This document shows, in pieces, positions 1 to 37,503 of a stretch of DNA of 37,503 bases. Location of the stretch: positions 1-37,503 of IMG/VR virus record IMGVR_UViG_2513237219_000007; one strand, 5' to 3'. The translations under genes were made by a program, and so were the position numbers. The notes below the pieces were generated by a model. It searched no databases, was not told the DNA's origin, and worked only from the letters and a program-made list of their open reading frames with translations. The first letter of the stretch is position 1. Every line of letters starts with the position of its first letter. Source of the DNA: a virus. Lineage: Duplodnaviria > Heunggongvirae > Uroviricota > Caudoviricetes.

Positions 1-483
1 ATGACGAAGAAAAAAGCACATAAACCTGGTTCAGCGACCATCGCGCTTAACAAGCGCGCCCGTCACGAATACTTTATCGAAGAAGAGTTCGAAGCGGGAC
101 TTGCCCTGCAAGGCTGGGAAGTTAAATCCCTGCGCGCAGGAAAAGCCAATATCAGCGACAGCTACGTCCTTCTGCGTGACGGAGAGGCATTTCTGTTTGG
201 CGCTAACATCACGCCAATGGCCGTGGCCTCCACGCATGTGGTGTGCGATCCTACCCGTACCCGCAAGTTACTTCTCAACCAGCGCGAACTGGACTCATTG
301 TACGGTCGCGTCAATCGAGAAGGCTATACCGTAGTGGCGCTCTCCCTGTACTGGAAAAATGCCTGGTGCAAAGTGAAAATCGGCGTCGCCAAAGGTAAGA
401 AACAGCACGATAAACGTTCAGATATCAAAGAGCGCGAATGGCAGGTGGATAAAGCACGTATCATGAAAAACGCCCACCGTTAA
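1..483 (+). CDS. smpB: SsrA-binding protein SmpB
   Basis: 160-aa ORF ([30 protein letters not shown]...) recognised as enterobacterial SmpB; located immediately upstream of tmRNA as in E. coli. Confidence 0.95.
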
Positions 484-697: not shown

Positions 698-1060
698 GGG
701 GCTGATTCTGGATTCGACGGGATTTGCGAAACCCAAGGTGCATGCCGAGGGGCGGTTGGCCTCGTAAAAAGCCGCAAAAAATAGTCGCAAACGACGAAAA
801 CTACGCTTTAGCAGCTTAATAACCTGCTTAGAGCCCTCTCTCCCTAGCCTCCGCTCTTAGGACGGGGATCAAGAGAGGTCAAACCCAAAAGAGATCGCGT
901 GGAAGCCCTGCCTGGGGTTGAAGCGTTAAAACTTAATCAGGCTAGTTTGTTAGTGGCGTGTCCGTCCGCAGCTGGCAAGCGAATGTAAAGACTGACTAAG
1001 CATGTAGTACCGAGGATGTAGGAATTTCGGACGCGGGTTCAACTCCCGCCAGCTCCACCA
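698..1060 (+). ncRNA. ssrA: tmRNA (transfer-messenger RNA, SsrA), 363 nt
   Basis: Starts GGGGCTGATTCTGGATTCGACGGG; internal tag reading frame GCAAACGACGAAAACTACGCTTTAGCAGCTTAA (787..819, ANDENYALAA-stop); tRNA-like 3' end GGTTCAACTCCCGCCAGCTCCACCA. Confidence 0.95.
1016..1060 (+). repeat. attL: 45-bp ssrA 3'-end core shared with attR
   Basis: ATGTAGGAATTTCGGACGCGGGTTCAACTCCCGCCAGCTCCACCA occurs identically at 36064..36108. Confidence 0.85.
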
Positions 1061-1183: not shown

Positions 1184-1666
1184 ATGGAAGAACTTCACTT
1201 TGTTTACATCAATGCAAATGGTCGTATCGGAGTTCACTCAATACAGAGCATCAGTTATAGCGAAAATCATATACAGGGCATTTGTAAGAACACCGATCGA
1301 ATAAAAACCTTCCGAAAAGACCGCATTCTTAAACAGTACGATTCACCAGAACAAGCCATTCAGGAATGCGCGTCATTCCTCCCCGAAAACTACTCACACC
1401 TCACTAAGCAGTCTGGTCCGAAAAAAAATACATTCGATGTGTGTTTCACCGGATTTAAGAAAGCAGATAAAGAAAGATTGGTTGATAAGGCGAATGAACA
1501 AGGATTAACGGTAAGAACCTCTGTAACCCAAAGCCTTCAGATGCTCTGTTGCGGTTACAATGCAGGCCCATCAAAAGTATCGGCAGCCAGGATGAAAGGC
1601 ACAATCATCATAGATGAGCCTGGCTTTATACATTTTCTTGAAACGGGTGAGATCCCAGATGAATAA
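1184..1666 (+). CDS. BRCT-domain protein (accessory gene between attL and ogr)
   Basis: 160-aa ORF; C-terminal half CFTGF..ERL..EQG..V..SVT..CCG..G.SKV..A..G.II.E..F..FL matches the BRCT fold pattern of NAD-ligase C-termini; N-terminal about 80 aa unassigned; own RBS. Confidence 0.6.
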   Translation: MEELHFVYINANGRIGVHSIQSISYSENHIQGICKNTDRIKTFRKDRILKQYDSPEQAIQECASFLPENYSHLTKQSGPKKNTFDVCFTGFKKADKERLVDKANEQGLTVRTSVTQSLQMLCCGYNAGPSKVSAARMKGTIIIDEPGFIHFLETGEIPDE

Positions 1667-6636: not shown

Positions 6637-7065
6637 CGTTGGCCCCGCTTCTCTGAATCGCTTTATACCGCCATTCCAGCACTTCGGTCAGCGGCATAAC
6701 GTCAGTAACGGATGGCGGCCAGTGAAAAATGGTGGCGATATCTGCCACCAGATCGTCAACCGTCAGGCTGTCGGTAAACCGGCAAGCACCGACTTCTTCA
6801 ACAAAAAAGTGACAACCTCAACCGACATGGCAGTGAGATCTGCCGGGTCCATCTCTGCAATTTCCTGTGCAGTCAGTGCCGGACTGGAGATGCGGGGGAT
6901 CACGGTCATCATCGCGTTTACATCCATATCCATAATGGCCTGCAGGCGTGTACCGCGCAGCGCACCGGACTGCGGTTTACGCAGCACAATTTCGGTGATT
7001 TCTGTTTTACCGCGCTTGATGGGGGTATCCAGTTGAATGGTCTTTTCAGTCTGCTTATCGCTCAT
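6629..7065 (-). CDS. Tail assembly chaperone E+E' (predicted product of programmed -1 frameshift)
   Basis: Slippery TTTTTTG heptamer on the minus strand at 6802..6808 near the 3' end of E; the -1 frame stays open to a TGA at 6629..6631, giving about 145 aa. Confidence 0.6.
6763..7065 (-). CDS. Tail assembly chaperone gpE
   Basis: 100-aa ORF (MSDKQTEKTIQLDTPIKRGKTEITEIV...) at the P2 E position. Confidence 0.8.
   Translation of the reverse strand: MSDKQTEKTIQLDTPIKRGKTEITEIVLRKPQSGALRGTRLQAIMDMDVNAMMTVIPRISSPALTAQEIAEMDPADLTAMSVEVVTFLLKKSVLAGLPTA
6802..6808 (-). promoter_or_regulatory. Programmed -1 ribosomal frameshift slippery site (TTTTTTG)
   Basis: Heptamer read directly on the minus strand inside the E gene. 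Confidence 0.55.
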
Positions 7066-8959: not shown

Positions 8960-9532
8960 TCAGGGGGATTCATTGATCTTATTTGCCGGAAATTTTCTAT
9001 AAATGGTAGAAACGCCTACATCAAAAATCAGTGCAATACGCTGTATTGATTCTCCGGCCTCGAGTAAACGCCCAATCTGTGCCCACTGTTCGGTGGTCAA
9101 CTTAGGACGGCGTCCACCTACTCTGCCTTTGGCACGAGCTGCAGCCAGCCCTGCCCTGGTACGTTCAACTATCAGTTCGCGTTCCATTTCAGCCAGGGCA
9201 CCCATGACATGAAAAAAGAAACGGCCCATTGGGGTACTGGTATCAATACTGTCAGTCAGGCTTCTGAAATTCACACCACGCTGGCGCAACTCTTCTATCA
9301 GCGTAACAAGATGCCGCATACTGCGCCCCAACCTGTCCAGCTTCCAGACAACCAGCGTGTCTCCTGCCGATAGTGTCCTGAGTAGTTTTTTCAGCCCCGG
9401 TCTGTCGGACTTAGTGCCACTGATTTTGTCCTCAAAAATCTGCTCACATCCCGCGCAGTTCAGTGCATTACGTTGCAAATCGGTGTTCTGGTCATTTGTT
9501 GACACGCGTACATAGCCAATAAGCATGATCAT
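8960..9532 (-). CDS. Serine-recombinase DNA invertase (Hin/Gin/Cin/Pin family)
   Basis: 190-aa ORF, MLIGYVRVSTNDQNTDLQ... with catalytic Ser motif and C-terminal HTH; adjacent to the tail-fibre inversion site. Confidence 0.9.
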   Translation of the reverse strand: MIMLIGYVRVSTNDQNTDLQRNALNCAGCEQIFEDKISGTKSDRPGLKKLLRTLSAGDTLVVWKLDRLGRSMRHLVTLIEELRQRGVNFRSLTDSIDTSTPMGRFFFHVMGALAEMERELIVERTRAGLAAARAKGRVGGRRPKLTTEQWAQIGRLLEAGESIQRIALIFDVGVSTIYRKFPANKINESP

Positions 9533-9581
9533 CCCCCTGAATAAAAACCGGAGATGATGCCAGTTAGCTGTTACCTCTGCA

Positions 9582-9607
9582 TTTTCTTAAACGTTGGTTT
9601 GGGAGAA
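9582..9607. repeat. Left inversion crossover site (hix/gix-like, 26 bp)
   Basis: TTTTCTTAAACG TT GGTTTGGGAGAA; its reverse complement shares 14 bp (TTCTCCCAAACCAA) with the site at 11413..11438. Confidence 0.65.
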
Positions 9608-9952
9608 GCGGCGAAAAGGGATGTGGGCACAGGAGATAATCAGATACCGGATATGGGAGCATTCGCTTCTGGTTCGGGATGGTTCAGGCTACCAGGTGGA
9701 TATATTGTTCAGTTTGGCACTTTTTCAGGAAACACGACCCGCTTTATCAGTGGACACTTCCCTATACCATTCCCTAATCAGCCGATGGTTTCAGTCAGTG
9801 TTATGTCTGATGCCGTTCAGTCAGACCCGTCGAATCCTGCCCCGCAGGTTTTGTCTGTAAATTTTGAACATATCAGTAATTCAGCGTGGCGTGTGGCAAC
9901 CAGTGATATCTCACAGCAATACAGATTCAGTTATATTTCGATAGGACGGTAG
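9594..9952 (+). CDS. Silent alternative tail-fibre C-terminal cassette (expressed only after inversion)
   Basis: Open frame running from the crossover core; begins with the same GLGE codons as the active H variable part; followed by its own tail-fibre assembly gene. Confidence 0.65.
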
Positions 9953-9954
9953 AA

Positions 9955-10395
9955 ATGCAGAAATATATTTTCAGTGCCGATAAAAATGCGTTTTTCCCTG
10001 TGGAGCTTAAAATCGCTTATCAGGAATCCGGCGAATGGCCCGATGATGGAATCGAAATTGACGACACTGTTGCCGCCGAATTTATGAAGGAAGCACCAGA
10101 AGGAAAATACAGAGGTGTCATCGACGGAATGCCTGCATGGATTGATATTCCACCGCCAACTCATGAGGAACAAATTGCCGCAGCCGAACTGGAAAAGCAG
10201 CAATTGATTAATCAGGTCAACGAATACATAAACAGTAAGCAATGGCCTGGTAAAGCGGCGATTGGTCGCCTGAAAGGTGAGGAACTGGCGCAATATAATT
10301 TGTGGCTGGATTATCTGGACACACTGGAACTGGTCGATACTTCCGGTGCGCCAGATATTGAATGGCCTACGCCTCCGGCAGTTCAGGCCAGATGA
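9955..10395 (+). CDS. Tail-fibre assembly protein (alternative, partner of silent cassette)
   Basis: 146-aa ORF with tail-fibre-assembly-like C-terminus (DTSGAPDIEWPTPP); convergent with the active tfa gene. Confidence 0.75.
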   Translation: MQKYIFSADKNAFFPVELKIAYQESGEWPDDGIEIDDTVAAEFMKEAPEGKYRGVIDGMPAWIDIPPPTHEEQIAAAELEKQQLINQVNEYINSKQWPGKAAIGRLKGEELAQYNLWLDYLDTLELVDTSGAPDIEWPTPPAVQAR

Positions 10396-10960
10396 CATCC
10401 GGCGCAGTGCTGGTATCTGTTACCGTCACCGCGTCAATATAATCCAGCACGGCGTTAAGTCGGGTTGTTTCTGCCTGCGTCAGCTTCCGCCCGGCCTGTA
10501 ATTTCAGTTGAATCAGACTGATGGAAGCCATTGCAGCATCAATCAGCGACTGGCGCTGTGCTTCTGCCGCGTCTACTGCGGCACTATGCTGTGCCTCAGT
10601 ATCTGTCACCCATTTCTCACCATCCCATTTATCGTATGGCGTTAACGGTGAAAGCGTGACATAACCGTCTTTGATGGCACCGATATAATCCACTGTAACA
10701 GCTGCGCCATTTTCGATTGAGTAAACAGTCTCATTGCGGTGGTCTTCTTCATGGCTCCATCCCTTACCCGTAAATACTGCCACTTTCCCCGGAATGTATT
10801 CGCCCGGGTCAATACCAGTGGAACAGGCGGGCATGCTTACGCCAGTATTAATATATTCATCAGACCAGCCCGTATATTCAGACGTTACTGCATCATAATA
10901 AAAACAACGCATATCACCCGGCACTGTAGCCAGCCCATTTTCATCAAAAACAGGTTTCAT
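10367..10960 (-). CDS. Tail-fibre assembly protein gpG (active orientation)
   Basis: 197-aa ORF, P2 G-like; start shares one base with the H stop (TAATG). Confidence 0.8.
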   Translation of the reverse strand: MKPVFDENGLATVPGDMRCFYYDAVTSEYTGWSDEYINTGVSMPACSTGIDPGEYIPGKVAVFTGKGWSHEEDHRNETVYSIENGAAVTVDYIGAIKDGYVTLSPLTPYDKWDGEKWVTDTEAQHSAAVDAAEAQRQSLIDAAMASISLIQLKLQAGRKLTQAETTRLNAVLDYIDAVTVTDTSTAPDVIWPELPEA

Positions 10961-20916: not shown

Positions 20917-22683
20917 ATGAACACCACACTGACACCCGCAGATCTCGATCCCCGTCGGCAGGCCATGCTGCTGTACTTTCAGGGATACCGCGTAGCCCGC
21001 ATTGCTGAAATGCTGGGCGAGAAAGTTGCAACCGTTCACAGCTGGAAAAAACGCGACAAGTGGGGTGACTATGGGCCGCTGGATCAGATGCAGCTCACCA
21101 CCGCCGCACGCTACTGCCAGCTCATTATGAAGGAGCACAAAGAAGGGAAAGATTTCAAAGAGATTGACCTGCTGGCGCGCCAGTCGGAGCGCCATGCGCG
21201 GATCGGCAAGTTTAACAATGGCGGCAACGAAGCCGACTTAAACCCTAACGTCGCCAACCGCAACAAAGGCCCGCGCCGTCAGCCGGAAAAGAACGTTTTC
21301 ACCGATGAACAGATTGAGAAGTTGGAAGAAATCTTCCATTCCTCCATGTTCAACTACCAGCGCCACTGGTGGGAAGCCGGAAAAACCAACCGCATCCGCA
21401 ACCTGCTGAAGTCACGCCAGATCGGCGCGACCTTCTATTTTGCCCGTGAAGCCCTGATTGACGCCCTGCTAACCGGGCGTAACCAGATTTTCCTTTCCGC
21501 CAGCAAGGCTCAGGCCCACGTCTTTAAGCAGTACATCATCGACTTCGCCAAAGAAGTGGAGGTGGAGCTGAAAGGCGATCCGATGGTGCTTCCTAACGGG
21601 GCCACGCTGTACTTCCTCGGCACCAATGCCCGCACGGCCCAGAGTTACCACGGCAACCTGTATCTGGATGAATATTTCTGGATACCGAAATTCCAGGAGC
21701 TGCGCAAAGTGGCTTCCGGTATGGCTATTCACAAAAAATGGCGACAAACCTATTTTTCCACGCCATCCAGCCTGACACACAGTGCTTATCCGTTCTGGTC
21801 CGGTGCGCTGTTCAACCGAGGGCGCAACAAAGCCGATAAGGTGGACATCGACCTGTCCCACAGCAATCTGGCCCCCGGCCTGCTGTGCGCAGACGGGCAG
21901 TACCGCCAGATAGTCACTGTGGAAGATGCGGTGCGCGGCGGCTGTAACCTGTTCGACCTCGACCAGTTGCGCATGGAGTACAGCCCGGACGAATACCAGA
22001 ACCTGCTGATGTGTGAGTTCGTGGACGATCTCGCGTCTGTGTTCCCACTCAGCGAGCTGCAGGCGTGCATGGTGGACAGTTGGGAAGTCTGGACCGACTT
22101 TCATGCACTGGCCCTGCGCCCGTTTGGCTGGCGCGAAGTGTGGATCGGATATGACCCGGCGAAAGGTACGCAGAACGGCGACAGCGCCGGATGCGTGGTG
22201 GTGGCGCCGCCAGCCGTGCCGGGCGGTAAGTTCCGCATTCTTGAGCGTCACCAGTGGCGCGGAATGGACTTCCGCGCCCAGGCTGACGCCATCAAAAAAC
22301 TGACCGAACAGTACAACGTGACCTATATCGGTATCGACTCAACCGGCGTTGGTCACGGGGTTTACGAGAACGTGAAAGCGTTTTTTCCTGCCGTCCGGGA
22401 GTTTGTCTACAACCCCAACGTTAAAAACGCCCTGGTACTCAAGGCCTACGACATTATCAGCCACCGCCGTCTGGAGTTTGACGCCGGACACACCGACATA
22501 GCGCAGTCCTTTATGGCAATCCGTCGCGCCACCACCGCCAGTGGCAACCGCCCGACCTATGAAGCCAGCCGCAGCGAAGAAGCCAGCCACGCCGATCTGG
22601 CCTGGGCAACGATGCACGCACTGTTTAACGAACCGCTGCAGGGCGAATCCGCCAATACCAGCAATATTGTGGAGATTTTTTGA
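20917..22683 (+). CDS. Terminase ATPase (large) subunit gpP
   Basis: 588-aa ORF, P2 P-like; transcribed divergently from the O operon. Confidence 0.9.
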   Translation: MNTTLTPADLDPRRQAMLLYFQGYRVARIAEMLGEKVATVHSWKKRDKWGDYGPLDQMQLTTAARYCQLIMKEHKEGKDFKEIDLLARQSERHARIGKFNNGGNEADLNPNVANRNKGPRRQPEKNVFTDEQIEKLEEIFHSSMFNYQRHWWEAGKTNRIRNLLKSRQIGATFYFAREALIDALLTGRNQIFLSASKAQAHVFKQYIIDFAKEVEVELKGDPMVLPNGATLYFLGTNARTAQSYHGNLYLDEYFWIPKFQELRKVASGMAIHKKWRQTYFSTPSSLTHSAYPFWSGALFNRGRNKADKVDIDLSHSNLAPGLLCADGQYRQIVTVEDAVRGGCNLFDLDQLRMEYSPDEYQNLLMCEFVDDLASVFPLSELQACMVDSWEVWTDFHALALRPFGWREVWIGYDPAKGTQNGDSAGCVVVAPPAVPGGKFRILERHQWRGMDFRAQADAIKKLTEQYNVTYIGIDSTGVGHGVYENVKAFFPAVREFVYNPNVKNALVLKAYDIISHRRLEFDAGHTDIAQSFMAIRRATTASGNRPTYEASRSEEASHADLAWATMHALFNEPLQGESANTSNIVEIF

Positions 22684-23718
22684 TGGGAAAGAGTAAGAAG
22701 AACCGCGCTGCGGCGACGAAACAGATCCAGCTTAAAAGTCAAACTACAGCCGAAGCATTCAGCTTCGGCGATCCCGTTCCTGTTCTGGACCGCCGAGAAC
22801 TGCTGGATTATGTGGAATGCGTACAGATGGACCGCTGGTATGAGCCGCCCGTCAGCTTTGACGGACTGGCGCGCACCTTCCGCGCTGCCGTTCATCATAG
22901 TTCCCCGATTGCAGTAAAGTGCAACATTCTGACCAGCACCTACATCCCTCACCCGCTGCTCAGCCAGCAGGTCTTTTTCGCGTTTTGTGCAGGACTATCT
23001 GGTATTTGGTAACGCCTACCTGGAGAAACGCACGAACCGCTTCGGTGAAGTTATCGCCCTTGAACCTGCCTTGGCAAAATACACCCGACGCGGGTTAGAC
23101 CTGGATACCTACTGGTTTGTGCAATACGGTATGACCACGCAGCCATATCAGTTCACGAAAGGCAGCATCTTTCATCTGATGGAACCGGACATCAACCAGG
23201 AGATCTACGGCCTGCCCGGTTATCTTTCTGCTATTCCATCCGCCCTGCTCAACGAGTCTGCCACGCTGTTCCGCCGCAAGTATTACATTAACGGCAGTCA
23301 TGCAGGCTTCATCATGTATATGACCGACGCCGCGCAGAACCAGGAAGATGTGAACAACCTCCGCAACGCGATGAAAAGCGCCAAAGGCCCTGGCAACTTC
23401 CGCAACCTGTTTATGTACTCGCCTAACGGCAAAAAGGACGGGCTTCAGATCATCCCGTTGTCAGAAGTCGCAGCGAAAGATGAATTTCTGAACATCAAGA
23501 ACGTGAGCCGGGACGACATGATGGCTGCACACCGCGTACCGCCTCAGATGATGGGAATTTTGCCGAATAATGTTGGGGGGTTTGGGGATGTGGAGAAGGC
23601 AAGTCGGGTATTTGTTCGTAATGAATTAATACCTTTGCAAAAACGTTTCGAAGAATTAAATTTATGGCTAAAAAATAATATTATTACATTCAAAGAATAT
23701 CAACTATCCCTAGACTAA
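22680..23718 (+). pseudogene. Portal protein gpQ, interrupted by a +1 frameshift in a T5 run
   Basis: Two ORFs (22680..23012 and 22987..23718) together span 1039 nt (about 346 codons, P2 Q-size); frame switch maps to the T run at about 22974..22978; removing one T gives continuous ...LLSQQVFSRFVQDYLVFGNAYLEKR... Confidence 0.8.
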
Positions 23719-23765: not shown

Positions 23766-25175
23766 TTACTCATCTACTCTGATTTTTTGTTTTTTATTAT
23801 TTTGAGTTAAGACATTTATGGTAATAGATGTATACGGATGAAAGTCAGGAACTATACTTTTAACCTCTCCATTTTCAAGAAAATGATGTGCTATTGAAGG
23901 AAATAAATCAGGATCTACAGGATATTTAGCATTAGGATTATGATACATATTTAAACCTTCTGCCCATGTTTCTGTAATATCGCCTTCTTTCACTTCAAAA
24001 CTAAATGCTGCTGGATATAATGCCTCTGGGTCATGATCATGGCAGTAACCACTCCTAAATAATCTAAGGTCACTTCTTCCAAAACCAGCCAGTTTTCCCA
24101 TCCGATTAAACTTCGATATAGTACCACTATTAGAACTAAGGACGGCCGAAATATTTTCAGACTCATCCAAGAAGAAAAAGCCTGAAGGAATTTCCTTTTT
24201 CTCAAATTGATGCGATATAATTTTCTTAGTTGCTAAACTGTAACATCCATCTTCAGATTTAACATGCTCATAGCGAATACCATAAAGATACTGCCAAAGT
24301 GCACTATGGGACCAAATCATAGAGTTTGGTTCATGAAAATCAGCAATTGCGAAAATTAAAGGATTCCCCTTAACATGTTCTAGATCCCAGTATCGAGTTT
24401 TCTTTTTCAGTTTAGAATAGAGAGAACTTCCAAATTTAATCGGCATATAATTCTCTATTTTCTCTAGCAATTCTTCCTTACTTTTAGGTTCTGATAGCAT
24501 TTCAGATGATTGATTAATATCATTCCCTGTTGGATTAACCGTTACAGCTTCAATGCAAATAGTATTACCATACTTACGTGCCACATAATCAGGGGCATTA
24601 AACTGCCTATCTAGCCAAAAGTGTTCCTCTCGTAAATATGCGAAAAGATATAACTCCCATAGCCGGGCATCAAAACCTGTTGTCTGAAACTGCTCTATAA
24701 AATTCCCGTCGACATCCTCAAAATGATTCATCATTTCCTTGATTATCCCTGTTGCAGGCGACCAGTTCGCGTATTTACCAAATAATGAAAAATGATGATG
24801 AAGTTTATCTGGTGTAACTATAGGTGTGAATAAATCCATTGCTTTATAAGTTTCATCACCTTGTGGAAATACTTTTACGTTTAATTTAGTATGCTTCCGC
24901 ATTAATTTCTTTAGTTTTGCTCGTGCAGAATTCATTTCTGAAACACTAGTAAATAGGTCAATACATCTATATCTCCCACTTAAGTCTCTTGCTAAAACAA
25001 TACCGCTATAATCTTCATCGATTTGATCCAATAATAGTGCCCCTAGCAGGAACTCTCTCGGACTACAGTACCACTCAAACTCATAGCCTAAAAGTTCAGT
25101 ATTTGGCATTCTGGTCCAATCAACAAAAGCATTAAACCTCTCTTTACTCATTTTTTTTATATCAAGAAAAGACAT
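23766..25175 (-). CDS. Hypothetical protein, AT-rich cargo gene between portal gene and putative cos (candidate defence/accessory gene)
   Basis: 469-aa ORF with strongly AT-rich codon usage (roughly one-third GC by eye) against a GC-rich phage backbone; GAGG RBS; no family recognised by me. Confidence 0.6.
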   Translation of the reverse strand: MSFLDIKKMSKERFNAFVDWTRMPNTELLGYEFEWYCSPREFLLGALLLDQIDEDYSGIVLARDLSGRYRCIDLFTSVSEMNSARAKLKKLMRKHTKLNVKVFPQGDETYKAMDLFTPIVTPDKLHHHFSLFGKYANWSPATGIIKEMMNHFEDVDGNFIEQFQTTGFDARLWELYLFAYLREEHFWLDRQFNAPDYVARKYGNTICIEAVTVNPTGNDINQSSEMLSEPKSKEELLEKIENYMPIKFGSSLYSKLKKKTRYWDLEHVKGNPLIFAIADFHEPNSMIWSHSALWQYLYGIRYEHVKSEDGCYSLATKKIISHQFEKKEIPSGFFFLDESENISAVLSSNSGTISKFNRMGKLAGFGRSDLRLFRSGYCHDHDPEALYPAAFSFEVKEGDITETWAEGLNMYHNPNAKYPVDPDLFPSIAHHFLENGEVKSIVPDFHPYTSITINVLTQNNKKQKIRVDE

Positions 25176-25272: not shown

Positions 25273-25291
25273 GCTCGTATCCCCGCCACGC
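25273..25291. other. Candidate cos site (cohesive-end region)
   Basis: Minus-strand GGCGTGGCGGGGATACGAG resembles the P2/186 19-nt cohesive end as I recall it (GGCG[A/T]GGCGGGGAAAGCA...); lies between the replication/SOS genes and Q as expected. Confidence 0.4.
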
Positions 25292-25341
25292 CTGCCCGCT
25301 TTATGTAGTGGTTTTCATGCACCTGCATGATCTACGCAAAA

Positions 25342-26073: not shown

Positions 26074-28497
26074 TTAATACAGGTTCCGCCACTGATCATC
26101 TTCCTGCAAACGCTGGTTCCGATAGAAGATACGCAGGCCTGCTCCTGACGGAATACTGCCTCCGCGAAGGAGTAAATCGACCTCTTTCTCGCTGCCATCA
26201 AATCCTCTGGACTTCAGCTCATACACGAGCTGCAGTCGCTGATGGTCTGTAATTCGCTGTTTGTAGTCTTTACGCCGTTTCGGTTTCACCAGGCGTAACC
26301 TTGCTGCCAGTTCCCGGCGCTCTTTTTTGCTCATACTGTGCAGGTAATCGTGCAACTCCTTGTCATCCATGCTGGTAATGTCCGTTCTGGGGTCCCCATC
26401 AGCTGATTTATCTTTCTCCTGTTGGTTCAAATTTTCAGCAAGGGGACAGTTATTGCCACGAGTCCAAGGGGCGCAAGCGCCCTGGTCGGCTGCCGCCTCC
26501 TGAACGTCAACGGCTTTACGAACCATTTTCCACTTCACTGCATGAGTGCAGATCTTGCCCTCTGCAATGGGTGACCAGATGCCATAAATACGAATGCCGT
26601 GATCGCCATAGGCGGTCGGCTCTTCGTTAATTTCATAAGCTGTTCTGATAAGGTGATATTTGCGGGGAACCAGCACGCCGCCCTGCTTCATGATGTAGGT
26701 GGCAAAACAGCCAGCATCAGCAGCAGCCAGGATGGCATCAAGGCGTGGGTTATCCAGTACCGGCGCACCTGCTTTTTTGTCCCCCTGCTGCCTTGCCGCC
26801 TGACCAGCCAGCAATCGCAGTTCACGGTAAGCCTGACGCCCCGGAATACCAAAGAAGCGGAATTGCTGAACACGATGCAGAGACGCCCAGGCATTAACGT
26901 ATTCAGCGTTATCACGCAGGGATTTACCCGTTTCCTTGCTGATCTCACCAGCCAGACCACGCCCGTCAATGTTCTTACTGATGTATTTCGCGATGTAGCT
27001 TGTTGGCGTACCTTTGCGCGGGTTTATCAGCTCAGACTTAAAGCGTGGTCCCGTGTTATTACCCAGCTCCTCGCGGTCTTCACGAATGGAAAACTTACGC
27101 AACAAAGCAGTAATGGCTCGGCGATCTTTTTTGCGCATAAAACACAACAGGTGCCAGTGAACTGTACCGTCATGATGCGGCTCAGCCACCCGCACGCCAT
27201 ACCAGCGCAATCCAGCTTTGTGCATCGCTTTACGAAATGCAGCAAACATGCCGACCAGATAATCACTGCTTTGTCTTACCGTCGCGTTTGTCCAGGTCGG
27301 GTTTGGTCTGCCGTTATTTAGCGTGGAATGGAAACGTGACGGACAGGTGATGGTGTAGAAAACGGCGCAGTCACCGCGCATTTCCGCGATAAGCTCCAGA
27401 CCTTTAACACAGGCCATCATCTCATTGCGGCGATGCGCAGGGTTGCTGCTGCTGGCGTTTACCACGTCTTCCATATCCAGCGTGTCGCCGTCTTCGTTCA
27501 CCAGTTCATGAGAACGAAAAAACTCCAGCGACTTACGGCGCTGCTCACGTTTATGCATCACGGCTTCATAGCTGACATAGGGAGATGCTTTTTTGCTGAC
27601 CAGGCAGACAGCGCGCAACTGCTCTTCCCGCCATTCGCAACGCATCTTCCATAATTTCCGATACCACCAGTCGGCGCACAACATACGCGCCAGCGAACCC
27701 GGAATGAGTTCATAGGGCACGGGTTTACGGCGGTTTCTTTTCCGGCGGAGTTGCTCAAACGCAGGTGGAATGACATCCAGTCGCAGGGTTTCTGCTGCCA
27801 CCCTTTCCCATGTCTTGCGGATTTCTTCTGGCTTAACGTCATCGGTGGCATACAAATCACCACAAGCGTCATCAAGACACATGCTCATATGCGCAGCGAC
27901 AAGGGTAGACAGGCGTTTCACCTGATCCTGACTCATTTCAGGCAGGATCAGCAGACCGTCCAGCCCTTCATGGCTTGCCATAAAACGAAAAGATGCAGAT
28001 AGCTGGCTGTCGCGTACATGCTCCAGTCGTTCCAGACATGGCTTAATCGTCTCACGCAAATAGCGGGAATAAGCCTTTGGCCTGCCCAGGCTGCTGAAAT
28101 ATTCAATACGTTGCATCAGCGGCTTGCTGATATGGGAAGGCTGGGCGTTGACGTCAGCCAGAATGACCATGTCCGGATTAAAACGCTGCTGCTCATGCGC
28201 CAGCTTTGCCCGACTAATGAGCTTATCCTGCTCCATTTCGCGCTGGACAGGATCACGGGATTCATTAAAGAAATAACGCTCCCAGACCTGATCACTCAGT
28301 ACCTCGCGGCGCAGGTGTTCCTGCTCGTTATCGGCAGCGTACAGAGCGATCAGGTTTGAAAGCGCAGAAACTGAAGATTGCTCTTCTGTCCCTACGTAAG
28401 GATTGATTGCTTTTTTCTCAGCATTCCAGGAATAGCTGTAGTTCATTACGCAATCTCCAGTTCGAGCTGTGAAGGCTGCAAACCATTCGACAGCCAA
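26074..28497 (-). CDS. Replication initiation protein gpA (rolling-circle nickase)
   Basis: 807-aa ORF with the tandem-tyrosine motif YIAKYISK characteristic of P2 A-type initiators. Confidence 0.85.
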
Positions 28498-29276
28498 TCA
28501 GAAACTGAAGGTGGGCGAACAGCTTCAATTGCACCTTTTAAAATTGCGCAACGGTTTTTCAGAATGACAGCTTTCAGCTCCTTTTCCGTCAGATTGCGCG
28601 AATACTCAGCCTCCTGAATAGCCCGCGTAAGCTCAGGATATTTGCTATTAAATTTGGGGACATTGCAGGCAAGATTTGTACTGTCGGCAGTCGCCAGTGG
28701 GTAATTTCCCAACACACGACCGTCAAGCATGCGCAAACCATGAACAGCTGTTTTGAAATTGTGTCGGCAATAAATTGCTTCAAAAGCGTCCTGCATACGA
28801 CGATGCCAGTGCGCAGTTCTGATAGCCGCATATTCACCAGACGATCCAAAACAGACACGAGGCCATTCACGACATAGCTCGATAAGCCGATCGATTGACT
28901 CGTGCAGATGCCAGACGGGAGTTGCCTTCCCGTAGAACATTTTCGGAACTTCGTTTATCAGGGCATCATTGTCACGTTCACCGCCGTCCACAACATCAGG
29001 AATGACAAAAAAAGCGACCTTAGGATGGTGGTAATAGTTCAGGAGCCATTTATAAAAATCACTCCAGTTAATTTTTAGCCCACGCACCCATGCAGAAAAT
29101 GCGCCGTTATCAATGCCGACGACCTGAGCGTGCTGAATGGACGCCGCAATCTGATCTGGTCGTACATAGGAGACGAAAGCGCCAGCTCCGCTCACCGCAA
29201 TACGATGAACTTCGCCAGCACTTCCCCAGACAGGCGTCCCATGGAAATGATGAATTCCGTGGTGCATTTCTTTCAC
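28446..29276 (-). CDS. Hypothetical protein, translationally coupled to Dam methyltransferase
   Basis: 276-aa ORF whose start overlaps the dam stop by 4 nt; no family recognised. Confidence 0.5.
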
Positions 29277-32701: not shown

Positions 32702-33742
32702 ATGACCATCAGAAAACAGCCGAACGGAAAATGGTTGTGTGAGTGCTATCCCAATGGACGCAATGGTAAGCGCGTGCGTAAGCAATTTGCTACCAAAGGC
32801 GAAGCCATTGCGTTTGAAAGCTTCACAATGGAAGAAGTGAACAAAAAACCATGGCTAGGGGAAAAGGAAGATCGGCGACATCTATCAGAATTAATTGAGC
32901 TGTGGTATTCCCTGTATGGTCAAACACTCGCAGACCCCAAGCGCCTCATGGCGAAACTTAGAATTATCTGTAATGGTCTAGGCGATCCCATCGCCTCAGA
33001 ACTGACAGCTGGTGAGTTTACGAAATACCGCGAAGCACGGTTAAAAGGTGAAGTACGAAATGAAGATGGCACGCTTATGTCGCCCGTTAAGCCCCGCACG
33101 GTAAATCTTGAACAGCGCAACCTATCATCTGTTTTTGGTACACTGAAAAAGCTGGGCCACTGGTCAGCCCCCAACCCGCTTGCTGGGCTGCCAACATTTA
33201 AAATTGCTGAGGGTGAATTGGCGTTCCTGACCCCGGAAGAAATTAAACGTCTGCTGGATGCCTGTGCTGATTCTCAAAGCCCCAGTCTGCTGATGATTGC
33301 AAAAATATGCTTGGCCACCGGCGCACGCTGGAGCGAAGCCGAAAACCTACAGAGTCATCAGGTATCAAAATACCGTATCACTTATACCAAGACTAAAGGA
33401 AAGAAAAACCGAACAGTGCCTATTTCAAAGGATTTATATGAAGAACTGCCTAAGAATAGGGGAAAATTATTTACACCTTGTAGGAAAGCTTTTGAACGTG
33501 CGGTAAAACGAGCTGGTATCGAGCTACCAGAAGGGCAATGCACACACGTATTACGACATACATTTGCAAGTCACTTTATGATGAATGGCGGAAACATACT
33601 GGTGCTGCGCGATATTCTGGGCCATGTCGATATAAAAATGACAATGATTTACGCCCACTTCGCTCCCGACCATCTGGAAGATGCTGTAACCAAAAATCCT
33701 CTTGCTAACCTTGGATGGAGAAAATTAGAAAGTGCTTGTTAA
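32702..33742 (+). CDS. int: Tyrosine integrase (P2/186 Int family)
   Basis: 346-aa ORF with the catalytic region HVLRHTFASHFMMNGGNILVLRDILGHVDIKMTMIYAH. Confidence 0.9.
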   Translation: MTIRKQPNGKWLCECYPNGRNGKRVRKQFATKGEAIAFESFTMEEVNKKPWLGEKEDRRHLSELIELWYSLYGQTLADPKRLMAKLRIICNGLGDPIASELTAGEFTKYREARLKGEVRNEDGTLMSPVKPRTVNLEQRNLSSVFGTLKKLGHWSAPNPLAGLPTFKIAEGELAFLTPEEIKRLLDACADSQSPSLLMIAKICLATGARWSEAENLQSHQVSKYRITYTKTKGKKNRTVPISKDLYEELPKNRGKLFTPCRKAFERAVKRAGIELPEGQCTHVLRHTFASHFMMNGGNILVLRDILGHVDIKMTMIYAHFAPDHLEDAVTKNPLANLGWRKLESAC

Positions 33743-33898: not shown

Positions 33899-35093
<1,195 letters not shown>

Positions 35094-36063
35094 CTTAGGA
35101 TTCCTGTATTTTCAGCGATATACTTTGGTATATTTTCCTGGCTTGGACATTCCCCTCAATTTGATAGTGAGGGCTTTAATAATTTCATTGCAATTAGCAA
35201 GCTTCCTATCGCCTTACTTTCTTTGTCCATACCATTTGTTGCTGTCGTAGCAAACATACACCGCACAGTTCAAACAAACCGACAAATTGAGGAAACCAAG
35301 CAAAAGAATCTATCTGATAGCTACTATAGCCATCTAAAGTTCGTTACTGATTATTTCACCAATTTACCTAACAAAACCATTAAACGCGAACGTCATTATG
35401 GTACTAAAGAGATAAGTTATAAAATAAACTACCCAATACATCTATATAGATATATTTTCATAAATAGCTCACCAGAGAAGGGACGGCCTAAAAATACAGA
35501 TAAAGAGTACATACGTGAAGTAAATAATCACTGGGTTGATATACTAAAAAACCTAGAGAAGATACATTCATCTAATCGTGGCTCTCAGTTTGCCGAAGTT
35601 TTAATCCGTCAAATGCAATCTCTTCATTCAATAGAAAAACACTTATCCGAACTTAATCGAATGCTTTGCCTAACTCCCATGGAGTTAAATGAACATGCAA
35701 CTTTATACTTTGATGGATATGAAATGATTACTAACTTCATGTCCAGCATTGAACTTGGCGATACAATTGAAACCTACTTCAAATTTACCATTGATATTCT
35801 TGATATTACCGATAATTTCCTTTCATTCAAGGATGATGGCTCGTCTGGGCAAATCATTATACTAGCAAGATTACTGAAAGATAATAATCCAGCTATCTTT
35901 GATGAAATTGTAACAAACAAAGGGAAGGCTCAACCTTCGTTGACCTACAATGGCGACAGATTGGCGACAGAACATTAAAAATGAGTAAAACGGACAAACA
36001 CAAGATAATACTAACTTACTGATTTTAAACGCAAGTTAATGTTTTTGCTATAGTGAAAATGGT

Positions 36064-36108
36064 ATGTAGGAATTTCGGACGCGGGTTCAACTCCCGCCAG
36101 CTCCACCA
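36064..36108 (+). repeat. attR: displaced ssrA 3'-end copy (45 bp)
   Basis: Identical to 1016..1060; also serves as the att junction for the downstream P4-type-integrase element. Confidence 0.85.
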
Positions 36109-36144
36109 CTTTTTAGTTGTTTGAAGTACAATGAAGTCTACTAA

Positions 36145-36176
36145 GCCCGCACAGCACAAGCTCTGCGGGCTTTTTT
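36145..36176 (+). terminator. Rho-independent terminator (probably the ancestral ssrA terminator)
   Basis: GCCCGCA-loop-TGCGGGC followed by TTTTTT. Confidence 0.6.
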
Positions 36177-36273
36177 ACGTCTATTGTCGTCCAGTGAGAA
36201 TTGCTGAGAACTATCACTTATGGCACCCTGAATGGGACCCACTAAGAAGGGTCCAAAAACCGAGGGTCCCAAA

Positions 36274-37503
36274 ATGGCAAAAATCGCTAAGAAGCTCACT
36301 GACACTGAAATCAAAAGCACCAAGCCAGCCGACAAAGAAATCAACTTGTTTGACGGAGATGGTTTGATACTACGAATCGCTCCCCTCTCGAAAGGAGGAA
36401 AGAAGAATTGGTATTTCAGGTATGCAGTGCCAGTCAGTAAAAAAAGAACCAAAATGAGCCTTGGGACATATCCTCACCTTACACTGGCAAGAGCCAGAGC
36501 CTTACGAGATGAATACCTTTCCTTGCTTGCTAATGGCATTGATCCCCAAGTTCATAACAACGATAAAGCTAATGCCTTAAAGAATGCTACTGAACACACT
36601 CTCCAAGCCGTGGCAAGGAAATGGTTGGATGAGAAGGTAAAGACCTCAGGTATCTCACAAGACCATGCAGCAGACATCTGGCGCAGCTTAGAGAGAAATG
36701 TCTTTCCTGGCCTGGGTAATGTCCCTATCAATGAGATCCGACCTAAGATCTTAAAACAACACCTTGATCCTATTGAGCAACGAGGCGTATTGGAAACTCT
36801 ACGCCGCATCATTTCACGTCTGAATGAAATCTTCCGGTGGGCAGCCACTGAAGAACTTATTGAGTTCAATCCGGCTGACAACCTTGGTCAAAGATTCAGT
36901 AAACCAAAAAAGCAAAATATGCCTGCCCTTCCCCCAAGCGAATTGCCAAGGTTTATGGAATCTTTGACGAATGCGTCAATCCGGCTGGAAACACGTATGC
37001 TAATTGAATGGCAATTGTTGACATGGGTTCGTCCGGGTGAAGCCGTTCGCGCAAGGTGGTCTGATATTGATACAACCAACAACATTTGGAACATTCCTGC
37101 TGATTTTATGAAAATGAAAAAGCCTCACAAAGTTCCTTTGAGTAAAGAAGCTTTGCACATCCTTGAATTAATGAAATCAATAAGTGGGCATAGAGAATGG
37201 GTTTTCCCCAGCATTAAAGCGCCTCTTAATCATATGCATGAACAAACAGCCAACGCAGCTATTATCCGAATGGGGTTTGGAGGCGAACTTGTAGCTCACG
37301 GTATGCGTTCGATTGCAAGAACAGCGGCAGAGGAGTCTGGTAAGTTCAGAGCTGAAGTTCTTGAGGCAGCACTCGCCCACTCTAAAAAAGATGAAATTAT
37401 CGCAGCATACAATCGTGCAGAATATCTGATAGAACGACAGAGTTTGATGCAATGGTGGAGTGATTACGTTCAAACTCAAAGAGCTAAAGCTATCGCTGCT
37501 TGA
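36274..37503 (+). CDS. intA: P4-type tyrosine integrase (IntA-like) of a second ssrA-associated island
   Basis: MAKIAKKLTDTEIKSTKPADKEINLFDGDGLILRIAP...KRTKMSLGTYPHLTLARARALRDEYL resembles the E. coli CP4-57 IntA N-terminus; GAGGGT RBS; stop at the window end. Confidence 0.85.
   Translation: MAKIAKKLTDTEIKSTKPADKEINLFDGDGLILRIAPLSKGGKKNWYFRYAVPVSKKRTKMSLGTYPHLTLARARALRDEYLSLLANGIDPQVHNNDKANALKNATEHTLQAVARKWLDEKVKTSGISQDHAADIWRSLERNVFPGLGNVPINEIRPKILKQHLDPIEQRGVLETLRRIISRLNEIFRWAATEELIEFNPADNLGQRFSKPKKQNMPALPPSELPRFMESLTNASIRLETRMLIEWQLLTWVRPGEAVRARWSDIDTTNNIWNIPADFMKMKKPHKVPLSKEALHILELMKSISGHREWVFPSIKAPLNHMHEQTANAAIIRMGFGGELVAHGMRSIARTAAEESGKFRAEVLEAALAHSKKDEIIAAYNRAEYLIERQSLMQWWSDYVQTQRAKAIAA

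Follow-up and report, generated by a model that had tools for sequence, protein, structure and literature searches.

The window, as we call the whole 37,503-nucleotide stretch of DNA that was analysed, represents a P2/186-family prophage integrated at ssrA. The features that bear on the argument are given below by window position, with the strand for those between the terminase gene and the cos-like site.

1..483, smpB
698..1060, tmRNA gene (ssrA)
20917..22683, plus strand, large terminase subunit (P2 gpP homologue), an intact 588-aa ORF with 100% amino acid identity to the S88 protein WP_001098431.1
22683..23012, plus strand, portal, first frame, with 96 native codons (M1..Q96) followed by 13 codons read out of frame, VFFAFCAGLSGIW, and by TAA
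22972, plus strand, single extra T causing the frameshift, between G22971 and C22973, lacking in every relative examined
22973..23718, plus strand, portal, second frame, running from native codon 97 to codon 344 and the stop, with the entire Phage_portal domain
22974..22978, plus strand, T5 run, as long as in the wild type (all intact relatives have five Ts)
23766..25175, minus strand, PD-T7-1-family anti-phage defence protein, 469 aa (PADLOC PD-T7-1, E=1.3e-196)
25274..25292, minus strand, cos-like site GGCGTGGCGGGGATACGAG, its first 13 nt identical to the phage 186 cohesive end, beyond the cargo gene
32702..33742, phage integrase

The 45-nt 3' end of ssrA (1016..1060) recurs at 36064..36108 as the att repeat. 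The terminase stop overlaps the portal ATG (22683) by one base, in the string TGATG. The defence gene is convergent with the portal gene and constitutes cargo in the cos-proximal gpA-gpQ hotspot (PMC9122126; bioRxiv 10.1101/2022.05.12.491691); no Pfam family matched its 469-aa product. The P2 cos 19-mer has no match in the window when up to 3 mismatches are allowed; a looser search yielded the 186-like cos end listed above. The preliminary description of this DNA, made from the sequence without database searches, judged the gene set to be complete apart from the portal, and the comparison with E. coli S88 broadly agrees. A tblastn search with 44 S88 proteins places 42 of them in the window, and all but Q align in a single frame; the two left without a counterpart are an S88-specific AIPR protein and a 407-aa ORF after int. 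Gene A is a 790-aa ORF with the full Phage_GPA domain (in S88 and MS7163 this gene is frameshifted by a shared 26-nt duplication), and the cos-like site and the 45-nt att repeat complete the set. The tail-chaperone slippery heptamer TTTTTTG is present on the minus strand at about 6800..6807, and marks the genuine programmed frameshift of the window, which is conserved.

The portal gene as deposited is not one continuous ORF, being split at codon 97. Two consecutive ORFs span it, one at 22680/22683..23012 (109-110 aa) and one in the next frame at 22987..23718 (243 aa), which bears out the earlier reading of a portal encoded in two consecutive frames. The TAA of the first frame begins at 23010. 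A Pfam search with the first ORF alone matched no family, while the second ORF scores 63.7 bits against PF04860 (Phage_portal) with a cut-off of 39.1; the frame break leaves the whole Pfam domain downstream. Read directly from the sequence, the earliest in-frame start candidate for the second frame is the GTG at 22987, which has no Shine-Dalgarno motif upstream.

Assignment of the gene to the P2 portal family, also proposed in the preliminary description, is confirmed by the PF04860 match and by the location of the gene, which comes right after the large terminase gene and overlaps it. Once T22972 is removed, the product is 344 aa long, like P2 gpQ and 186 gpW (Peduoviridae; PF04860), and is colinear with them throughout. 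Over its full length the restored protein shares 62% identity with both P2 gpQ and the 186 portal, and 96% with the portal of Escherichia phage Cartapus (Elveevirus), the closest named phage to the window portal. As in P2 and 186, the gene follows and overlaps the terminase gene, is divergent from the capsid operon, and lies cos-proximal, next to the cargo hotspot. Within the P2 gpQ family the window portal is unexceptional, and is closest to the Cartapus group. It differs from the portals of P2, 186, Cartapus, Klebsiella phage 4LV2017 and more than 1,100 E. coli prophages, each encoded by one ORF, in being split by one base.

The base responsible can be placed exactly by alignment. The preliminary description put the frame junction at the T5 homopolymer; the extra base is instead T22972, one base upstream of that run, which is itself of normal length. 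The window reads GGTCTTTTTCG at 22970..22980, and T22972 is what turns the GGCTTTTTCG of the relatives into this string. In the alignment, the junction in S88, MS7163 and ExPEC XM is CAGCAGG-CTTTTTCG, with five Ts, against CAGCAGGTCTTTTTCG in the window. Cartapus and Klebsiella phage 4LV2017, whose junction is GGCTTTTTC, also have five Ts (GGCTTTTTCG/A among the five intact relatives). P2 and 186 have GGATTTCAG at the corresponding site, encoding the peptide LSQQDFSRF. The k-mers that distinguish the two versions of the junction are CAGCAGGTCTTTTTCGCG and CAGCAGGCTTTTTCGCG.

Deletion of T22972 gives 1035/1035 nt identity with the S88 portal gene (WP_000520349.1, 344 aa), and the restored gene is equally identical in six further genomes. 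Deletion of a T from the run instead leaves 2 nt differences from S88 and the substitution A97V; downstream of 22972 the portal has 100% nt identity to S88. The native peptide is thus SQQAFSRF (SQQAFSRFVQDY), not SQQVFSRF. A change in the length of the T5 run is ruled out as the lesion, since intact relatives have five Ts and deletion from the run leaves two mismatches. The earlier suggestion that removing one T restores a Q-like protein is correct as far as the family goes (that version scores 66.6 bits against PF04860, cut-off 39.1), except that it carries V97 rather than the native A97. Four Ts on resequencing, named there as the sign of an assembly error, is the wrong outcome to look for: a corrected sequence would keep five Ts and lose the T before the C.

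A T-rich run at the junction of two overlapping frames is also what programmed frameshifts look like, as in the P2 tail chaperone (E/E+E', -1 at TTTTTTG) or in prfB-type +1 frameshifting. If the frameshift were real, it might be bypassed by a +1 slip of tRNA-Phe on the U5 run, with GUC UUU UUC read as V-F-S, which would give a full-length A97V portal and a leaky or functional prophage. The insertion is followed directly on its 3' side by the U5 run, the only plausible site for such a slip; the two frames overlap without a stop from 22933 to 23009, and a +1 shift anywhere in that interval restores the portal. The family varies at residue 97, with A in the Cartapus group and D in P2 and 186, and the insertion creates AGGU, a 4-nt Shine-Dalgarno-like match, fortuitously, one base before the run. 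Unlike programmed frameshifts, however, the arrangement occurs in no relative: it is conserved in 0 homologues, and every relative or viable phage examined has a single portal ORF. The arrangement also lacks a stall codon. The A site holds neither a stop nor a rare codon (UUC, which comes after UUU, is a sense codon in common use), and where there is no stalling codon only background +1 slippage is expected, going by prfB-type frameshifting in general. Five Ts are likewise too short for appreciable transcriptional slippage. Neither a conserved two-frame arrangement nor a slippery P-site codon paired with a slow or stop codon is found here, and programmed recoding of the portal is effectively excluded. 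Low-level slippage on U5, perhaps aided by AGGU, would suppress the frameshift through the adjacent slippery run and allow a few particles per burst; we consider it, and a slip-rescued portal generally, very improbable.

The insertion is private to one assembly. Among 5,426 complete E. coli genomes, about 1,250 records carry the portal gene, and the best 7 of these roughly 1,250 matches differ from the window solely by a one-base gap. A 70-nt junction probe, applied at a threshold of at least 99%, matched 0 of the approximately 1,105 E. coli records having the segment. A 40-nt probe centred on T22972, designed so that megablast is unable to seed on the wild-type sequence, had no match in the 5,426 E. 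coli genomes or in 50,697 phage records. The exact mutant 35-mer was not found in species-representative genomes, viral contigs or metagenome contigs. At the protein level, the 109-aa truncated product was not found among about 15 billion proteins, a collection in which the intact 344-aa portal occurs on 833 contigs.

The closest relatives give the same result. Over 14.8 kb, the window differs from L023 (GCA_010557405.1) by 1 SNP plus T22972, from L024 by 3 SNPs plus T22972, and from L018 by 6 SNPs plus T22972; over 9.3 kb it differs from L029 by 3 SNPs plus T22972. All four of these independent assemblies have the wild-type junction and a called 344-aa portal. A pseudogene inherited in the lineage, which should show its lesion in related isolates, is ruled out: neither the 5,426 E. 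coli genomes nor the phage collection contains the variant, and the closest relatives are all wild type. Portal fragments of 195 aa and 243 aa were considered as possible further sightings of T22972 and rejected; the contigs that carry them have deletions, another mutation or a rearrangement, and are wild type wherever the junction is present.

What remains is a choice between an error in the one assembly and a change in the one strain. The window matches GenBank CP002291.1, the genome of E. coli P12b, at 100.000% over 16,373 nt, mutant junction included, and at 100% over a further 21,515 nt. The first of these stretches was reached by exact look-up of the 790-aa replication protein encoded in the window, the second by its tail-fibre allele; these two alleles also led to the independent assemblies of nearly identical prophages compared above. 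Window position x corresponds to CP002291.1 position x + 2,968,131, which places T22972 at 2,991,103. P12b, the H17 flagellar type strain, was sequenced by 454/Roche FLX to 13.5x (238-nt reads) with an additional 2.86x of Sanger shotgun (PMC3378880), and CP002291.1 is assembled mainly from 454 FLX reads. A recognised class of 454 error, the carry-forward error, consists of an inserted base of the same kind as a homopolymer that follows one base later (Huse et al. 2007, PMC2323236). The P12b insertion has this form, a single inserted base identical to the upcoming T5 and separated from it by one C: the change from GGCTTTTT to GGTCTTTTT (GG[T]C-TTTTT in the window, GGC-TTTTT in all relatives) fits the definition. 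Unlike the errors for which that definition was framed, which belong to individual reads, the extra base in P12b stands in a finished consensus.

The error could arise as follows. With the 454 flow order T-A-C-G, some template copies may take up the C after GG prematurely, by carry-forward. At the next T flow these out-of-phase copies would add five Ts at once. The homopolymer would thereby amplify the signal of a small out-of-phase fraction, and one T could be called before the C, to give GG-T-C-TTTTT. We infer that such an error then survived into the consensus at 22972.

A second anomaly in the same prophage is relevant to this choice. The copy of IS5 at 33899..35094 is 1196 bp long instead of 1195, because GG has become GGG at 34075..34077 (CP002291.1 3,002,206..3,002,208), which frameshifts the IS5 transposase after about 37 codons. 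Of the 13,831 matches to IS5 in the E. coli collection, none has the GGG variant, and a junction-specific probe for it had no match there. Lengthening of an existing run belongs to the "homopolymer extension" class of Huse et al. (PMC2323236), and the extra G is a 454-type insertion of that class. T22972 and the IS5 G are exactly the two private single-base insertions in the window, and both break genes that are otherwise perfectly conserved.

The assembly is not generally ridden with indels, and that explanation is discarded: besides these two bases there are no unbalanced indels over about 35 kb compared with relatives. There are 0 indels in 21.5 kb relative to L027 and L028, 0 gaps in 12.2 kb relative to L029, and 0 gaps in 4.7 kb relative to CFSAN051542. 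L025 (CP164995.1) presents a different picture, with three private single-base deletions of its own, which indicates that assemblies readily acquire such lesions.

Taken together, the private character of the insertion, the 454 chemistry of the assembly, the exact fit to a known error class and the presence of a second private indel of 454 type favour an artefact. So does the sequence context, in that slippage would not insert a T between G and C. Judged by mutation spectra in general, spontaneous +1 insertions seldom take this form outside a run. We conclude that T22972 is most likely, though by no means certainly, a 454 base-calling or consensus error in CP002291.1. The preliminary description was right that the frame break is in the sequence, and it named assembly error as an alternative; its default, that the frameshift is real, is the part that the evidence disfavours, given a single 454 assembly, an insertion of carry-forward form and a second indel of 454 type.

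Several considerations pull the other way, towards a genuine and very recent mutation private to P12b, with the portal truncated after residue 96 and followed by 13 foreign residues. We hold this to be the less probable reading, while giving it serious weight. The frameshift does stand in the sequence as deposited. At a combined coverage of about 16x, most errors of single reads should have been outvoted, and the remainder of the window is clean, as it would not be in an error-ridden assembly. The authors of the P12b genome report finishing work in which repeats and regions of low quality were amplified again and checked (PMC3378880). Huse et al. (PMC2323236) describe carry-forward errors as "substantially less common" than extensions of homopolymers, so that the proposed artefact would be of the rarer 454 class. 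P12b is an old type strain maintained in the laboratory, and the IS5 insertion itself, flanked by a 4-bp duplication of its target TTAG, is a genuine private disruption of the prophage. Between int and attR it breaks a cargo ORF of 309 aa, which CFSAN051542, L020 and L024 have in intact form, and as a real recent change in the same prophage it makes further private mutations plausible there. Broken P2-type portals are, moreover, common in enterobacterial genomes, as represented by a cluster of 903 partial or truncated portals, among them fragments on 388 and 105 contigs, and by independent truncations in L007, L008, L009 and L022. The gene A duplication of S88 and MS7163 is a real frameshift of comparable effect. 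As in those decaying P2-like prophages, a single lesion in an otherwise complete element would abolish an essential function.

The decay lesions, however, are common to several independent assemblies, whereas T22972 is known from a single assembly, of low 454 coverage, and has the exact form of a documented artefact of that chemistry. In the 14.8 kb shared with its closest relative, the window shows 1 substitution and 1 indel, a high indel-to-substitution ratio for neutral decay. Nor is any selective advantage of losing the portal evident, the replication and lysis genes being intact.

The two readings differ in what they predict for the prophage. If the mutation is real, the Phage_portal domain is left in a frame that lacks a usable start signal. 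Induction would lead to replication, synthesis of capsid and tail proteins and cell lysis; by analogy with the role of gpQ in P2, the prophage would form no portal-containing procapsids and package no DNA, and would thus be defective, the consequence drawn in the preliminary description. By the same analogy it could not help P4-like satellites. It would then be one more privately decayed prophage. If, as we think likelier, T22972 is an artefact, the actual prophage encodes an unbroken portal of 344 aa, the same as in S88, the label "defective prophage" would be wrong, and P12b probably carries a complete, possibly inducible P2-family (Elveevirus-like) phage with a PD-T7-1 defence gene.

Neither a 454 artefact nor a pseudogenising mutation is a new phenomenon, and the biological importance of the locus is small either way. 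Its use is rather as a guide to curation. Frameshifts found in a single assembly of a 454-era genome should be compared with near-identical relatives before they are given a biological reading, and an indel should be placed by aligning the gene with an intact homologue rather than by eye at the nearest homopolymer.

The features noted here, on coding-frame interruptions and accessory genes of this prophage and its relatives, are as follows.

1184..1666: 160-aa ORF between attL and ogr, annotated in S88 as a BRCT-domain protein
1428, 3577 and 20210: window positions corresponding to the single-base deletions of relative L025
about 6800..6807, minus: conserved slippery heptamer TTTTTTG
8960..9532: serine invertase, 190 aa (Resolvase and HTH_7 domains)
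23766..25175, minus: 469-aa gene convergent with the portal gene, PD-T7-1 by PADLOC
28446..29276, minus: ORF of 273-276 aa, flanked by gene A and the Dam methylase gene
33899..35094: IS5 copy with a 4-bp target duplication, TTAG
36232..37503, plus: P4-type integrase (Arm-DNA-bind_3 and Phage_integrase domains)

The TTTTTTG heptamer is that of the programmed -1 frameshift of the P2 tail chaperone (E/E+E'). The genuine programmed frameshift of the window lies here and has no relation to the portal gene. The IS5 transposase is frameshifted by an extra G within 34075..34077 (GG to GGG), a change private to the window: none of the 13,831 matches to IS5 among complete E. coli genomes has it. The extra G is probably a further homopolymer error of 454 pyrosequencing, the main method used for CP002291.1. 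The IS5 copy interrupts a cargo ORF of 309 aa that lies between attR and the phage integrase; no close relative has this insertion. The three deletions in L025 (CP164995.1, a complete genome) are likewise private, when compared with the window and all other relatives, and are probably uncorrected assembly errors of that record; neither a tape-measure nor a scaffold gene is called in L025.

The prophage of S88, used as the comparison reference, shares with that of MS7163 a 26-nt duplication in replication gene A (corresponding to window position ~26439), and gene A is annotated as frameshifted in both, whereas in the window it is intact and lacks the duplication. With that frameshift, the reference prophage is probably replication-defective itself.

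The 469-aa gene matches the anti-phage defense family PD-T7-1 (E=1.3e-196), contains no Pfam domain, and has an S88 counterpart of 100% identity. Its location is the known cos-proximal defense hotspot of P2-like phages, between gpA and gpQ. The gene lies in visibly AT-rich DNA. The 273-276-aa ORF, with no matches in Pfam or PADLOC, is missing from the S88 prophage and found in all closest relatives. The 160-aa ORF may be cargo at the prophage's other end, given its weak match (E=1.8e-7) to the candidate defense family PDC-S48.

Downstream of tail-fiber gene H, in the region 8960..10960, the invertase adjoins ORFs for a tail-fiber C-terminus (gp53-like) and tail-fiber assembly, in opposite orientations. 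By analogy with Mu Gin and P1 Cin, this segment, absent from the S88 prophage, looks like an invertible host-range segment.

At 36064..36108 the 45-nt 3' end of ssrA occurs for a second time, and the P4-type integrase comes after it; a second integrative element therefore lies in tandem at ssrA. In the stretch 36064..37503 this element shows only ~97% identity to its best E. coli match.
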